Shown in pieces: positions 57,366 to 60,975 of a stretch of 64,000 nucleotides of DNA (the stretch's first letter is position 1; the number at the start of each line of letters is the position of its first letter). The notes beneath the pieces are model-generated. The model was not told where the DNA came from and did no database searches. It saw only the letters and a list, made by a program, of their open reading frames with translations. The DNA is taken from assembly GCA_963754655.1 (NCBI GenBank), contig CAVWGN010000001.1, positions 416,001 through 480,000 on the forward strand, given 5' to 3'. The translations under genes were made by a program, and so were the position numbers. Source of the DNA: an uncultured Chlamydiae bacterium. Its GTDB lineage: Bacteria; Chlamydiota; Chlamydiia; Chlamydiales; Parachlamydiaceae.

Positions 57366-58280
57366 TTAGACATCCATTTTAGGACTTAACGTCAGCCAGC
57401 CCGCCTGCATCCAACTTTGCAGCCATTTTTGCAAATGATTGGCCACAAATTCATATACAGAAGAGTCTTGTGATTCGATGTATGCACAAGCATCTGTGAG
57501 ATTCGTTCCCATTTTAAAGCATTCTAGCAAAATAAATTCCTCTTTGCTGATTTCACGCCAAGCCAGATGATTGTTCGCATTGCGATAAAGAATAAAGAAA
57601 TAGCTTTTTTCCTTAGGGAGATCTGGAAAGCGATGTTCAAGCCAATAATCCACATCTTGTTTTAAAAAATTTCCACGAAATGTCAAAAGATCGTATTCCC
57701 ATGTAAATAAATTGATATGGGGCTGCAGGTAAAACACTTGTGAGAGCAAACTTTCAGGATTGTCATTGATGAATTGAGCAAGATCTGGCGAAGAATATTG
57801 AGAGGCAATCAGACTTGCCATAAAAGCCCAGTCTAAACTAGCGGCATTTAGAATTAAGGCTTGGTCAGGCTCTCGGTAGCATTCCGCGACCCATTTTGGC
57901 AGGCGCTCTCCCAATAAGTTTAATGACCAATGATTAGGGGGATATTTTAATAAATAGGGAATGCCTATTTTTTCATTAAAGGCATGGGAACCAAATAGGC
58001 GAGTGACCAGAGGAAAATTAGCATGCAAAGTGTTGAGTAAGCGCCACCAATATTGTTGGTTGTAAATTTGCATGCGTTGATGAGGTCGCAATTTGGAGCT
58101 CGGTGTAATATAGCGAGCCGCCTCTTCAGCAATTAAGATGCCATGGGTTGAGTTTGAATAGGGTTGGATTGTGTTATTTTCTCCTAGTCGATTGGTAATG
58201 ACACTGGCAAACCATTCTTGAGTCGCCTTTAATTGACAAGGAGGTTGATCCATATCTTTGTTTAGCGTTTGTTTTTTCAT
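57366..58280 (-). CDS. DUF2063-family MNIO partner protein (HvfC/BufC-like)
   Basis: RMQIYNQQYWWRLLNTLHANFP..LFG..F..YLLKYPP; ATG overlaps the DUF692 stop (ATGA). Confidence 0.85.
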   Translation of the reverse strand: MKKQTLNKDMDQPPCQLKATQEWFASVITNRLGENNTIQPYSNSTHGILIAEEAARYITPSSKLRPHQRMQIYNQQYWWRLLNTLHANFPLVTRLFGSHAFNEKIGIPYLLKYPPNHWSLNLLGERLPKWVAECYREPDQALILNAASLDWAFMASLIASQYSSPDLAQFINDNPESLLSQVFYLQPHINLFTWEYDLLTFRGNFLKQDVDYWLEHRFPDLPKEKSYFFILYRNANNHLAWREISKEEFILLECFKMGTNLTDACAYIESQDSSVYEFVANHLQKWLQSWMQAGWLTLSPKMDV

Positions 58281-59158
58281 GTCACACCTGCTTTTGAAAC
58301 AAAGGAAGATAAGGGAGGTAATGAATGCTGTTCGTGGATTCCTTGTTGAAATTGTTTTGCTTTTAAGGCTTCTGCCCATGTTTGTTCGAAAGATAGAAGA
58401 TTATCATCCCATTCAAGAAGCGTTGACACACCTCCAGTCAAAGGGTAAATCTCAGCGTAAAGATCCCATACTTCATGACGTACTGGATGATCATGAGTGT
58501 CTAAGACATAGTCTCCAAAGTCAGTATGACCCGCCAAGTGAATTTGAATGACGCGATCTAAGGGAAGATTTTGGTAGTAAGTTTTAGGATCAAAACCATG
58601 GTTACGGCTCGAAACGTAAATATTATTGACATCCAGCATCATATAAGTGTCAGATTGTTCCACAACGGAGCTATAAAATTCCCATTCAGACATTTCATCT
58701 TGTTTAAAAGCCACATACGAAGAGAGATTTTCAAGTGCAAAAGGCAATTCAAGATAGTCTTGAACAATACGAGCTCGTTCGGCAACATACCGAATGACCT
58801 CTTGAGTATAAGGAAGAGGTAATAAATCATGGTAATGAGCCCCGGGAAGATGGCCCCAGCAAAGATGATCTGAAAGCCAAGGAGTTTTAGTCTTGCGAGT
58901 CAAAGCCTTAAGTTTTTTTAAATAGTTAAAATCTAAAGGCGCTGGGCTTCCAATTGCTAAAGATACGCCATGCTGAACGACCGGATAGCGCTCTAGAATA
59001 CGTTCTAAATTTTCAAGGGGCTTTCCTCCTTCTACCATGAAATTTTCACTAATAATTTCAAACCAATCAATTGCAGGTTGAAGGCGAAAAATATCCTCAT
59101 AGTGAGGAACGCGCAATCCAATGCCAATGCCTAAATTGGGAAGCGGTCTTGCTTTCAT
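58277..59158 (-). CDS. DUF692 multinuclear non-heme iron oxidative enzyme (MbnB/TglH/ChrH/BufB family)
   Basis: GIGLR, EIISENF, HGVSL, SDHL, LENLS, LDVNNIYVS, IHLAGH, DTH, LLEWD. Confidence 0.95.
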   Translation of the reverse strand: MKARPLPNLGIGIGLRVPHYEDIFRLQPAIDWFEIISENFMVEGGKPLENLERILERYPVVQHGVSLAIGSPAPLDFNYLKKLKALTRKTKTPWLSDHLCWGHLPGAHYHDLLPLPYTQEVIRYVAERARIVQDYLELPFALENLSSYVAFKQDEMSEWEFYSSVVEQSDTYMMLDVNNIYVSSRNHGFDPKTYYQNLPLDRVIQIHLAGHTDFGDYVLDTHDHPVRHEVWDLYAEIYPLTGGVSTLLEWDDNLLSFEQTWAEALKAKQFQQGIHEQHSLPPLSSFVSKAGVT

Positions 59159-59406
59159 CTGAGATTTCCTTGCTCACTTATATCAATAGTGGTTTCATTC
59201 GCGATTTTTCGACTCTAGAGACCTGTTGGCAAATGATTACGCTCTTACGAGGGCGTTCTCTCTTTTGTCAATTTCGAAGGATGGTTCAGCCGCCGAAATT
59301 TCACTTTATATCTGATGGTCAATAATTATGAAAAGATTTAAGAGGTTAAGAAGGAGATTTTTTGTTATTCCTTGTGCTTCAAGCCTCTATTAGAATAAGA
59401 TAAAAA

Positions 59407-59433
59407 ATGTGCGCAACGAACTGTTGCGCACAT
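59407..59433 (-). terminator. Intrinsic terminator between the candidate precursor genes and the MNIO gene
   Basis: ATGTGCGCAAC/GTTGCGCACAT stem followed by a T run on the minus strand. Confidence 0.75.
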
Positions 59434-59452
59434 AACGATTCTGAAATACCTA

Positions 59453-60283
59453 CTAACGATTCAATAAACCACGACGTTCGCTCATGCGACGTTGGGCTTC
59501 TTTGACTGCAAGATTTTTATCTTTGTAGGAGTCTTGACTGGCTAATTGAATAGCCAACGCTTTCCCTTCTGGGTCCAAACTAAGATAAATTGCTCTTCCC
59601 TGAGAACTTAGCATGCCAAGCAGCTGAGGTTCTGTAAAAGTTGCAGTTGAATTCGAAGTTGTCACGGCAGCTCGATTAAAATCATAATCAGTTGTCGTGA
59701 GGTATTCACGATTAAAGTTCGTCAAACCGCCATACTCAGGCGTCGGGCGTGGCGTGGAATCGTAGGTGACTCCACGATAGTCCTCTACATAAGTCGGCGA
59801 CGTTATGCCAGATTGTTGAGTATTATAACTGCTGGGAGGAGAATAAGCATAGCTAATAGAGCTAGAATTATTCCTATCACTTCCTCCCGTTGAGGGAGGA
59901 TTCGCAGAGCGATTATCACTGCCTGATGGATGATTGTAACCCTTGGGAGGTTCACGAAATCCATTTGGCGAGTTGTTTGCACCCTGATCATTTGGTGAAG
60001 CAGTATAACCCCTGTAGCCATTACCTGATGGAGCATTCTGATTTCTTGCGCCACCAGAGTGGCTATTATACCCATTGCCGCTTTGATTAAAGTTGCCTGA
60101 ATTGTTCGCATTAGTGTCGCTGCTTTTGTTACTGTTAACAGCAGGACACCCATGAGCAGCACAACCAGCAGCTAAAAAAATGCCCTGTGCTTCTCCACTA
60201 TCAGCTTGGCCATTGACAGGAGTTGCTGAAGACAGAATCAAAGCTGCTAAGGCAATCTTCACTAGGTCTTTTTTATTTTCCAT
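59453..60283 (-). CDS. Secreted candidate MNIO substrate 2 (AAGCAAHGC motif, N/S/G-rich linker, helical C-terminal domain)
   Basis: Sec signal; N-terminus paralogous to 60316-60975; directly upstream of DUF692. Confidence 0.75.
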   Translation of the reverse strand: MENKKDLVKIALAALILSSATPVNGQADSGEAQGIFLAAGCAAHGCPAVNSNKSSDTNANNSGNFNQSGNGYNSHSGGARNQNAPSGNGYRGYTASPNDQGANNSPNGFREPPKGYNHPSGSDNRSANPPSTGGSDRNNSSSISYAYSPPSSYNTQQSGITSPTYVEDYRGVTYDSTPRPTPEYGGLTNFNREYLTTTDYDFNRAAVTTSNSTATFTEPQLLGMLSSQGRAIYLSLDPEGKALAIQLASQDSYKDKNLAVKEAQRRMSERRGLLNR

Positions 60284-60315
60284 ATGATTTTCCTATTACT
60301 GGATTGGCCAATGAA

Positions 60316-60975
60316 TTAGCGATTCCAGCTGTTCGAGCTATTTCCTGAGGATGGATAACTACTCGAATCATCTGTGCTGCTAGAGCTACCTGAACGATTA
60401 GAGTTGTTTCCGCTATTAGTTCCACTTGATGTGTCATAATTGCTCATTCCACTATTGCTCATTCCACTATTGCTCATTCCACTATTGTTCATTCCACTAT
60501 TGTTCATTCCGATCGTGTTATAGCTGCCTTGGCGACTTGTACTAGATCCACCATAACCAGATGTGTTAGATCCACTGCCATAACCAGATGAGTTAGATCC
60601 ACTGCCATAACCAGATGTGTTAGATCCACTGCCATAGCCGGATGTATTAGATCCACCATAGTTCGAGCCTGAGCTTCCATAAGAGCTGCCTGATGTGTCA
60701 TAGCTGTTGTTCATTCCACTCGTATAATTGCTGCCTTGGCGATTATAGGGATTGTTTGCACTAGAATTTGTTCCTGAATTTGATCCAGAGCCAGAATTAG
60801 ATCCTGAACCGCTTCCTGTTGAAGCTCCACAACCGTTTGAACTAGCAGCGCAACCAGCGGCTAATAAAATTCCTTGTGATTCTACTGCATCTGCATGACT
60901 AGCAGCTGGTAGGCTGGATGCTAGCAAAAGAGCGGCTAAGGCCATTTTTGCGAGATCTTTCTTTTTACTTTCCAT
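60316..60975 (-). CDS. Secreted candidate MNIO substrate 1 (AAGCAASSNGC motif, S/G/N/Y low-complexity tail)
   Basis: GGAGG RBS, Sec signal ending ASHA, tandem GYGSGSNTS and GMxNS repeats. Confidence 0.75.
   Translation of the reverse strand: MESKKKDLAKMALAALLLASSLPAASHADAVESQGILLAAGCAASSNGCGASTGSGSGSNSGSGSNSGTNSSANNPYNRQGSNYTSGMNNSYDTSGSSYGSSGSNYGGSNTSGYGSGSNTSGYGSGSNSSGYGSGSNTSGYGGSSTSRQGSYNTIGMNNSGMNNSGMSNSGMSNSGMSNYDTSSGTNSGNNSNRSGSSSSTDDSSSYPSSGNSSNSWNR

Follow-up and report, generated by a model that had tools for sequence, protein, structure and literature searches.

The locus studied here is a chlamydial bufferin-2/captophorin locus that has lost its six-Cys Buf2 gene. On balance, the enzyme pair that it retains, an MNIO (DUF692) and its DUF2063 partner, probably converts Gly-Cys residues in the heads of two proteins encoded upstream, P1 and P2, to 5-thiooxazoles before Sec export, which would give heads likely to bind copper, carried on disordered tails. 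The window analysed was a stretch of 64,000 nucleotides, and its host is, as far as sequence tells, an environmental chlamydia, the closest named enzymes being those of Parachlamydiaceae; this agrees with the probably intracellular bacterium supposed in an earlier note on this DNA. Proteins with a di-Cys head are called type B and the chlamydial six-Cys Buf2 precursors type A. The features of the locus are the following:

57366..58280, minus strand: PME1 partner (DUF2063), 304 aa counted from the ATG overlapping the MNIO stop
58277..59158, minus strand: MNIO (DUF692), BufB-type, 293 aa
59397..59433, minus strand: intrinsic-terminator-like hairpin and U-run after P2, from folding energy against shuffles
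59453..60283, minus strand: P2, putative type-B precursor, 276 aa; leader/signal peptide, head, disordered stretch, C-terminal helical domain
59456..59647, minus strand: P2 residues 213-276, Buf2-derived scaffold, from HMM match, hhalign and structure models
60316..60975, minus strand: P1, putative type-B precursor, 219 aa; leader/Sec-type signal peptide, di-Cys head, repetitive tail
61002..61028, minus strand: inverted repeat directly downstream of the promoter, conserved; 5' leader hairpin or operator
61037..61066, minus strand: sigma-70-type promoter-like element before the first head gene, TAGACA-18-TATGGT, conserved
61361..61837, minus strand: P0, Cys-free secreted-looking relative, 158 aa from an RBS-led ATG, upstream of the P1 promoter

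All four co-oriented ORFs of the earlier note were found on the minus strand with the gene content that it gave, and the translational coupling that it proposed for MNIO and partner corresponds to an ATGA overlap of the MNIO stop and the partner start codon. Its observation that neither DoxX nor an ECF sigma gene is adjacent held for the ten nearby ORFs scanned with Pfam and NCBIfam, among which no DoxX or sigma gene was found; the only DoxX match in the genome lies ~0.54 Mb from the locus.

The MNIO matched PF05114 with an E of 1e-104 and scored 325.1 bits against NF050167 (BufB; NCBIfam cut-off 310), but only 250.5 against HvfB (cut-off 360). The metal-ligand motifs, described before as intact-looking, are complete: the active-site residues H63, H98, E143, D176, N179, H207, D220, H222, E249 and D251 are all present, the identity of the ligands being taken partly from alignments and otherwise presumed. 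The partner was recognized as DUF2063 (PF09836; 48.7 bits, cut-off 27.2, E 9e-13), and its C-terminus scored 19.2 bits against the RRE-like NGO1945_C, under the cut-off of 27. A BufB-subfamily MNIO with, by its sequence, an intact metal site and an adjacent DUF2063 partner places the locus among captophorin/bufferin loci. Its layout, with P1 and P2 as Cys-bearing, predicted signal-peptide precursors upstream of the MNIO gene, also appears to be of the bufferin type, at two Cys each. The proposal of a new RiPP-like system had therefore to be abandoned: the enzyme lies above the BufB cut-off, published lists already include its orthologues among Buf2-associated MNIOs and captophorin MNIO-PME1 pairs, and most relatives keep a Buf2 precursor of the published class in the same array. 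Neither the class of enzyme nor its chemistry is new; a description of this di-Cys-head precursor family was not found in the literature and survey supplements searched.

In chlamydial arrays the usual order is di-Cys-head genes, six-Cys Buf2 gene, MNIO, DUF2063. Of 40 good family genomes, 10 lacked the six-Cys core. A single shared loss was rejected (AU p 0.0016), at least five changes being required on a 22-taxon tree, and these sequence comparisons show that the Buf2 gene was lost more than once in the family. In the genome studied, which is 96.7% complete and in two contigs, an HMM built from 53 type-A proteins matched only the Cys-less scaffold of P2. Neither tblastn nor blastn detected a Buf2 gene remnant in the 295-bp gap between P2 and MNIO, where only the terminator hairpin was matched. 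A search of the genome with NF050166 also gave no match, but the control search missed Caulobacter, and the result is hence weightless; chlamydial type-A proteins themselves scored 25-41 bits with this profile, under its cut-off of 60. A fold search with a type-A model against 48,161 chains revealed no clear fold (best Z 4.1).

The loss of the six-Cys gene did not leave the enzymes without constraint. The ten active-site residues did not vary among the 13 core-less genomes, and MNIO dN was 0.10-0.16 as against a dS of 1.5 or saturated. By these sequence measures, enzyme and partner remain under purifying selection after Buf2 loss. MNIO residue D252 occupies a position typical of the Cys-Lys (Buf2) group, provided that the roles of D251 and D252 map as deduced from PMC12668002. 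This Asp was retained in all 13 core-less genomes although their heads mostly lack Cys-Lys, and at the positions checked no enzyme change tracked Buf2 loss.

The alignment of P1 with P2 is confined to the N-terminal ~51 residues (61% identity, E 1e-16). Each has two Cys, the only ones in the protein as the earlier note had observed: C42 and C49 in P1, where both follow Gly in a C42-x6-C49 head succeeded by a Ser/Gly/Asn-rich repetitive tail, and C41 and C46 in P2, whose head reads C41-A-A-H-G-C46. The motif pattern of that note matched only P1 and P2 among 26,450 six-frame ORFs, and the same was true in this genome of a head profile (next best E 0.19). A looser di-Cys filter retained 4 of 435 secreted-looking ORFs, and the two besides P1 and P2 were not of low complexity. 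Pfam and NCBIfam scans assigned P0, P1 and P2 to no family (NCBIfam for P1 and P2 down to E 0.1), and an ESM Atlas search with P2 residues 1-60 and 205-276 returned no usable match, an uninformative outcome. In the structure model of P2, residues 3-19 form a hydrophobic helix, residues 21-212 are predicted to be disordered, helices span 218-273 and there are no strands. Judged from sequence and model, both proteins are likely to carry Sec-type signal peptides.

Among relatives the heads are conserved and the tails, ~80 to >350 residues long, are not. Two earlier claims, that the proteins share a head and then diverge totally and that the tails are long and interchangeable, were thus borne out in part; they fail for P2 residues 213-276, which are conserved, folded and derived from Buf2. 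This segment is a four-helix Buf2 scaffold from which the 32-residue six-Cys loop has been deleted between D251 and S252: the type-A HMM matched it at model positions 4-42 and 75-95 and skipped 43-74, and hhalign and structure models also tied it to the type-A scaffold. The loop was kept in 0 of 90 P2 homologues, and the identity of the scaffold was 0.77 among conserved non-Cys parts. The C-terminal Gly/Ser/Thr/Tyr/Pro motif of P0 recurs in family members that bear heads. Head Cys are absent from P0 and some relatives, and the P2 orthologue of P. amoebophila has a single one, which suggests that part of the precursor family works without a di-Cys site.

C-x4-C spacing was found in 61 of 84 P2 homologues, and in 51 of 80 the second Cys is preceded by HG. 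Head Cys were mostly followed by Gly (305 of the Cys tallied), with Pro after the first Cys in 26/84 P2 homologues and after the second in 34/80, C46 of the present P2 included. Because C41 is invariant and L37 and A38 nearly so in 43 P2 homologues, the L-A-A-G-C-like sequence could be read as a lipobox, P1 and P2 being lipoproteins in which at most the second Cys is modified; by prediction, lipoproteins make up about 16% of Buf2 precursors (PMC12452194). We regard this as highly improbable: the Cys is at residue 41-42, some 20 polar or acidic residues beyond the hydrophobic helix, and Lys, Asp or Asn directly precedes the Cys in 8 of 83 heads, at variance with the usual lipobox rules.

The hairpin between P2 and the MNIO gene had a folding energy of -17.7 kcal/mol (z -5.17; 0 of 200 shuffles as stable), and hairpins like it follow the type-B genes of relatives whether or not a Buf2 gene comes next. 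As predicted from sequence, this putative terminator would separate the head genes from those of the enzyme pair. The promoter-like element, conserved in a comparison of 13 loci, is single-copy in the genome (nhmmer self match E 4e-16, next 0.62), with no copies before other genes that would indicate a regulon. No covariation was seen in the inverted repeat at 61002..61028. Sigma-28, sigma-54 and EUO-like consensus patterns gave nothing consistent upstream.

MNIO is carried by 44 of 45 family genomes. Across the phylum, heads were found in 82 of 400 genomes, of which 79 had MNIO, and in only 3 of 261 scored MNIO-less genomes, counts that are partly circular, the profile having been built from linked heads, and that include related, not independent, genomes; within these bounds the linkage check proposed earlier came out positive. 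In 7 of 53 genomes the head genes are wholly or partly detached from MNIO. This detachment, the terminator between arrays and enzyme and the unchanged Asp252 would all fit heads that are not MNIO substrates at all, but ordinary thiol/disulfide or Cys-His metal sites on secreted proteins that are related by descent to the Buf2 gene and encoded at the same chromosomal spot, the enzyme being kept for another substrate; the frequent Cys-Pro and the conserved His would suit an unmodified C-x-x-H-x-C site. We consider this rather improbable. No alternative substrate was found in the genome by the type-A HMM, the head HMM, a DUF2282 search (one sub-cut-off match, with a stop codon) or the di-Cys filter. 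The heads share their leader with Buf2 precursors, 25 of 132 new profile hits are fusions that join the head to the six-Cys core, heads are nearly absent where MNIO is, and repeated Buf2 loss is seen only where heads remain.

A complex model that places the P2 head in the MNIO active site and the signal peptide on the partner also argues against unmodified heads. Built from our own alignments, it scored 0.61 as against 0.02 for the best control, the controls being proteins other than a secreted protein of the same genome. It passed a mark that 116 of 157 solved complexes attained, as did 2 of 215 mismatched pairs. Runs agreed in at least 65% of contacts, with a partner pLDDT of at least 56; modelled head contacts include MNIO H98, D220-H222 and E249-D252, and the C-terminal helices of the partner (residues 261-292) touch the signal peptide. 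Resemblance to the solved MbnABC/TglHI complexes may have shaped the model.

In the preferred reading, modification of the heads by the enzyme pair, the signal peptide would double as a leader that docks on the C-terminal domain of the partner, and residues 36-50 would enter the MNIO active site, as modelled. By analogy with the family, each modified Cys would become a 5-thiooxazole at -4 Da (PMC11626156, PMC12668002), after which the precursors would be exported, their signal cleaved, and Cu bound in the periplasm or EB envelope; a copper role of P1 and P2 is thus suggested by their relatives. Because of the terminator, precursors may be in molar excess over the enzyme. FonBC prefers a small residue such as Gly after Cys and rejected Pro at every position (PMC12668002), and since Pro follows many head Cys, some may stay unmodified. 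Cys-Pro, the unchanged Asp252, the terminator, heads lacking di-Cys, the limits of the model and detached heads count against this reading.

The closest known system is bufferin 2 (BufA2-BufB2-BufC2) of C. vibrioides (PMC11626156, PMC12452194, PMC12668002), which is alike in its BufB-type MNIO, DUF2063 partner, precursor-MNIO-partner order, lack of DoxX, Sec-type precursor and Asp after the catalytic Asp; the precursor of sister genomes was filed as Buf2 in PMC12452194. Bufferin 2 belongs to the Buf_6/12Cys, 'Cys-Lys' captophorins, whereas this genome encodes no six-Cys precursor, and its candidates have two Gly-Cys, are 219-276 aa long and mostly disordered, one with a Cys-emptied Buf2 scaffold. 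Control by SigF there contrasts with a sigma-70-type element and late developmental expression of orthologues here. P1 and P2 were rejected as Buf_6/12Cys precursors, the Buf2 family (NF050166) having six or twelve conserved Cys and P1 and P2 two each, with the loop deleted from P2 and no profile match, and as Buf1 precursors, for want of a PF10048 (DUF2282) domain with four Cys. The Lys-Cys (EGKCG) captophorins HvfA, FonA and NgoA (PMC12668002) share a signal peptide, low complexity, X-Cys-Gly sites and the MNIO-PME1 pair. In contrast to these, and as the earlier note had remarked, neither P1 nor P2 has EGKCG repeats, which also excluded them as Buf_EGKCG/oxazolin precursors; a genome-wide scan for the pattern met only Cys/Thr/Arg/Ser-rich repeat frames, the enzyme is below the HvfB cut-off, and the position of FonB Phe250 is probably Asp. 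The 'CxxxxC' family (PMC12452194), compared by spacing and accession only, resembles P2 in C-x4-C spacing, signal peptide and a PME1-type partner; none of six chlamydial accession prefixes searched was in its column, and no Lactamase_B_2 or DoxX gene was seen near the locus. TIGR04222 proteins (PMC12452194) are linked to MNIO and have Gly/Ser-rich low-complexity regions with periplasm-facing Gly-Cys, but they span the membrane several times, have their Cys at the C-terminus and lack a DUF2063 partner; P1 and P2, with such a partner, no NCBIfam match and neither this domain nor several transmembrane segments, were rejected as members.

In Protochlamydia amoebophila the orthologous genes are late-cycle and co-induced (Late II): pc1862-1866 all rose 2.8-7.3-fold from 48 to 96 hpi, pc1864 exceeded the MNIO gene ~8-fold in EBs, and the EB proteome contained pc1863 and pc1864 (PMC5451489 supplement). 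No other expression data were found, a look-up of RNA runs for the present DNA having listed none. Copper has 0 mentions in that study, and such induction neither proves nor excludes a copper role. In a 2009 study (PMC2811131), pc1862-1864 are listed as predicted species-specific integral OMPs, so that P0-P2 might be outer-membrane beta-barrels unrelated to the enzyme. With a strand-free P2 model, disordered and then helical, and tails of such varied length, this is disfavoured as extremely improbable.

The expression data and EB detection would also fit heads that are modified by MNIO but whose products are developmental parts of the EB envelope (a redox buffer, a cross-link or a metal-bridged mesh via the low-complexity tails) rather than copper detoxifiers. 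Captophorins aggregate upon Cu loading (PMC12668002). Two Cys per 220-280 residues are a poor copper sink per mass, the conservation of non-Cys parts (scaffold, P0 motif) points to a function besides metal binding, and neither ECF sigma nor DoxX is nearby. EBs are, however, the stage that meets the phagosome. All characterized MNIO-PME1 products are reported to contain 5-thiooxazoles and generally bind Cu (PMC12668002), and bufferins protect C. vibrioides in an amoeba assay (PMC11626156). We consider an envelope role unlikely.

The heads of P1 and P2 are candidate substrates for the chlamydial MNIO-PME1 pairs listed without a precursor in two published surveys, and as a natural experiment the recurrent loss of the canonical bufferin lends them credibility. 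If head modification holds, the substrate range of MNIO would stretch to long, two-Cys disordered proteins, and the proposed second role of the signal peptide, as leader, can be put to the test; P. amoebophila UWE25, cultured and with EB proteome data, permits a direct test. More speculatively, and at a probability that we put as low, a substrate switch may be in progress: a Cys-Lys maturase in Protochlamydia-like chlamydiae, having repeatedly lost its bufferin, would now modify disordered secreted proteins of 100-400 residues recognized via the signal-peptide leader, and thiooxazole heads, variable tails and the Cys-emptied scaffold would build a developmentally timed, metal-coordinating EB layer. 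The pathway would then be tied to the infectious stage of amoeba symbionts, and MNIO chemistry would serve cell-envelope differentiation, not stress-induced copper chelation.

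Four open reading frames lie on the minus strand at 57366-60975, as stated in an earlier note on this DNA:

P1, within 57366-60975, minus strand, secreted-looking precursor of 219 aa
P2, within 57366-60975, minus strand, secreted-looking precursor of 276 aa
MNIO gene, within 57366-60975, minus strand, DUF692 enzyme (PF05114, E 1e-104)
partner gene, within 57366-60975, minus strand, DUF2063 (PME1) protein (E 9e-13)

The MNIO and partner ORFs overlap as ATGA, in agreement with the translational coupling proposed before. The description of the precursors also held: P1 and P2 are alike only in their first ~51 residues, and each has exactly two cysteines, both inside this shared region (the head), which was found in only these two ORFs across the 3.16-Mb genome. 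In relatives, such type-B genes occur one to four per locus, upstream of type A, the chlamydial six-Cys Buf2-type precursor. Type-B proteins consist of a Lys-Lys-x-Asp-Leu-type signal peptide, the same as that of type A, a short acidic pro-region, the head (Leu-Ala-x-Gly-Cys...Cys) and a low-complexity tail. That the head Cys is a lipobox Cys is very improbable. A short Ile/Val-Ala-Asp-Asn motif, possibly a site of processing, is seen repeatedly in type-B proteins of the relatives' loci L031-L073, either following the head or inside the tail. Upstream lies P0 (61361-61837), a relative that looks secreted and has no Cys; it carries a ~30-residue Gly/Ser/Thr/Tyr/Pro motif that is strongly conserved. 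Its orthologues span head-bearing to Cys-free forms, and their conserved leader appears to decay along with Cys loss.

The earlier note regarded the locus as a new RiPP-like system. This did not stand for the enzyme, which is of a known kind: it scored 325.1 with the NCBIfam model of the bufferin maturase BufB (cut-off 310) and fell below the HvfB, ApyH, ChrH and MbnB models. Chlamydial MNIO-PME1 pairs are already among the captophorin loci (PMC12668002), and two chlamydial enzymes and one precursor have been placed under Buf2 (PMC12452194). The enzyme is the sole MNIO of the genome. Of 401 genomes of the phylum, 139 have an orthologue; within the family the count is 44 of 45, and none of the 30 genomes of family f4 (listed members 1.0-1.2 Mb) has one. 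Since the closest named relatives are from Parachlamydiaceae (88-91% identity), the host is probably an environmental chlamydia. In other chlamydial families (L091, L100, L103, L110, L115, L124, L127) MNIOs are paired with EGKCG- or EGSCG-like precursors instead, so the phylum contains several captophorin types.

The linkage of heads to MNIO, which the note had proposed as a check, was borne out across the phylum: 79 of the 82 head-matching genomes, among 400 scored (one was unscored), have an MNIO. Of the three others, one has its array at the end of a contig and two match in the signal peptide only. When head matches were restricted to those with E <=1e-6 that reach the Cys (81 of 139 listed), 68 lay upstream of an MNIO at a distance of no more than 4.5 kb, and these came from 46 of 53 genomes, a count that is partly circular and drawn from related, non-independent genomes. 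In many genomes a divergent MFS transporter gene (62603-63814; L134-L138) adjoins the precursor array, and it keeps with the array where the MNIO is located elsewhere.

Type A was present in 50 of 100 MNIO loci compared (53 proteins), as a signal peptide followed by a helical scaffold with an inserted six-Cys-type loop; six of nine proteins tested matched the BufA2 model, under its cut-off. Among 132 new head-profile proteins, sampled from the best 150 of 455 matched clusters, 66 had the head only, 41 the head and a Cys-less scaffold, and 25 the head joined in one protein to a six-Cys domain that is intact; types A and B are thus modules of one family. P2 carries a bufferin scaffold (residues 213-276) emptied of its Cys loop. 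A type-A-only HMM aligned with it at model positions 4-42 and 75-95, skipping the loop (E 8e-7). This is the independent test, as the type-A alignment of the profile-profile comparison, which gave a clean 32-residue deletion in P2 between D251 and S252 (probability 99.5), included P2's own domain (1 of 52 rows). The same four helices were modelled in type A (pLDDT 83) and in P2 residues 221-270 (pLDDT 94-97); P2 residues 21-212 were mostly below 50. Among 90 matches to P2 (self included; lengths 151-483 only) all had the scaffold, none the loop and 83 the head, with exactly two Cys in 72 of the 83. Mean identity to P2 was 0.66 in the signal peptide, 0.69 in the head, 0.19 in the tail and 0.77 in the scaffold. 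A Tyr/Asp/Arg-rich segment before the scaffold (59456-59750, P2 residues ~186-214) has a conservation of 0.41, compared with 0.19 for the remaining tail. In other chlamydial families Cys-less or tandem scaffold copies stand as separate secreted proteins (L136:3537-3938, L137:3354-3725, L139:3780-4097, L077, L092, L097, L108), which points to a separate role for the scaffold.

No type-A gene was found in this genome by an HMM search of all six-frame ORFs of at least 40 aa (the sole match was the P2 scaffold), and no remnant in the P2-MNIO gap. Of 73 family genomes 49 have the six-Cys core, as do 30 of the 40 good ones; the 10 good genomes without it include one- and two-contig assemblies. Genomes with and without type A are interleaved in trees of MNIO plus partner. 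A single grouping of nine core-less genomes was rejected (AU p 0.0016) in a 22-row gene tree, not a species tree, with the remaining rows omitted and the groups taken from the six-Cys-core survey and defined after the first tree had been seen; on this tree the core-less state arose more than once. The 13 core-less genomes aligned show no variation at ten active-site residues, and their MNIO dN is 0.10-0.16, with dS 1.5 or saturated; so constrained an enzyme still needs a substrate, and type-B heads are the only candidates found. The reading of the heads as an unmodified thiol site, with the enzyme acting on another substrate, is quite improbable.

A complex of MNIO, partner and P2 residues 1-53, modelled with our own alignments, scored 0.61 against 0.02 for the best control; of 157 solved complexes 116 reached the score mark used, as did 2 of 215 mismatched pairs. 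Contact agreement was at least 65% and partner pLDDT at least 56. Signal-peptide residues 6-19 were placed on partner helices 261-292, and P2 residues 28-50 on MNIO residues including H98, D220-H222 and E249-D252. The model supports predicted binding of P2 to both proteins. The related MbnABC and TglHI complexes are already solved. Overall, the heads are probably MNIO substrates.

The first head gene is preceded by a promoter-like element that occurs once in this genome and is conserved across 13 loci. Just past its predicted -10 box an inverted repeat (61002-61028), conserved in L032, L033, L045, L054, L056 and L067, gives a weak hairpin when folded (z -0.8 to -3.1); because no compensatory changes were seen among the compared loci, an operator is as likely here as an RNA structure. 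Directly after P2 there is a strong hairpin with a U-run, and similar hairpins follow type-B genes in relatives; such terminator-like ends would leave precursor in excess over enzyme. The partner gene and the outer-membrane-protein gene converge on a 151-bp palindrome (57161-57311) with a 3-nt loop and 74-nt arms that are 96% complementary. It consists of two copies, back to back, of a ~70-bp REP- or MITE-like repeat dispersed at ~82 places in the genome. The weakly matching outer-membrane beta-barrel gene (56436-57104) and a PgeF/YfiH gene (55520-56308) downstream are syntenic in close relatives, with no link to the system seen.

The P2 orthologue of Protochlamydia amoebophila UWE25 (CAF24588.1/WP_011176409.1) adjoins its MNIO by accession and, as pc1865 is the DUF692 gene, is presumably pc1864. 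According to the accessible part of PMC5451489, pc1862-1864 are 'late II' genes, pc1866 is 'early I' and pc1865 has no class; between 48 and 96 hpi all five increase 2.8-7.3-fold, pc1864 in elementary bodies (EBs) is ~8-fold over pc1865, and the EB proteome contains pc1863 and pc1864. Modified heads with a structural or developmental role are an unlikely reading. The products of pc1862-1864 have been predicted as outer-membrane proteins (PMC2811131, in part), which finds no support in the P2 structure model, and beta-barrel precursors can practically be dismissed.

On testable features this is a bufferin-2/captophorin locus, and it works like one. P1 and P2 are outside the Buf1, Buf2, EGKCG and TIGR04222 precursor families, an exclusion that covers these four and not CxxxxC. 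The captophorin precursor table includes chlamydial type-A ORFs; in its accessible part neither the type-B motifs searched for nor an entry for the P. amoebophila partner were present (PMC12668002). The landscape table, as far as accessible, gives P. amoebophila an MNIO and DUF2063 with no recognised precursor, and Neochlamydia, despite its type-A ORF, also scored zero. No description of the type-B family was found in the literature searched; Fig. S3 of PMC12452194, outside that search, may bear on its novelty.

Several points count against the mechanism given below: Cys-Pro, frequent in heads, is not accepted by FonBC (PMC12668002, in part); the Cys-Lys-type Asp252 is unchanged in the enzyme; a terminator-like hairpin separates the head genes from the enzyme genes; Cys-free and single-Cys family members exist; and the BufA1 signal peptide is dispensable (bioRxiv 10.1101/2024.03.18.585515, in part). 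With these weighed, we lean slightly towards the following mechanism. In the cytoplasm the partner would bind the conserved signal peptide and MNIO would oxidise the head Cys to 5-thiooxazoles, by analogy with bufferins and captophorins (PMC11626156, PMC12668002, both in part). The modified precursor would then be exported by Sec and cleaved, leaving a product whose disordered tail bears a metal-binding head within the envelope of the developing elementary body, where, if the heads are modified, a role in copper handling would be fairly likely.
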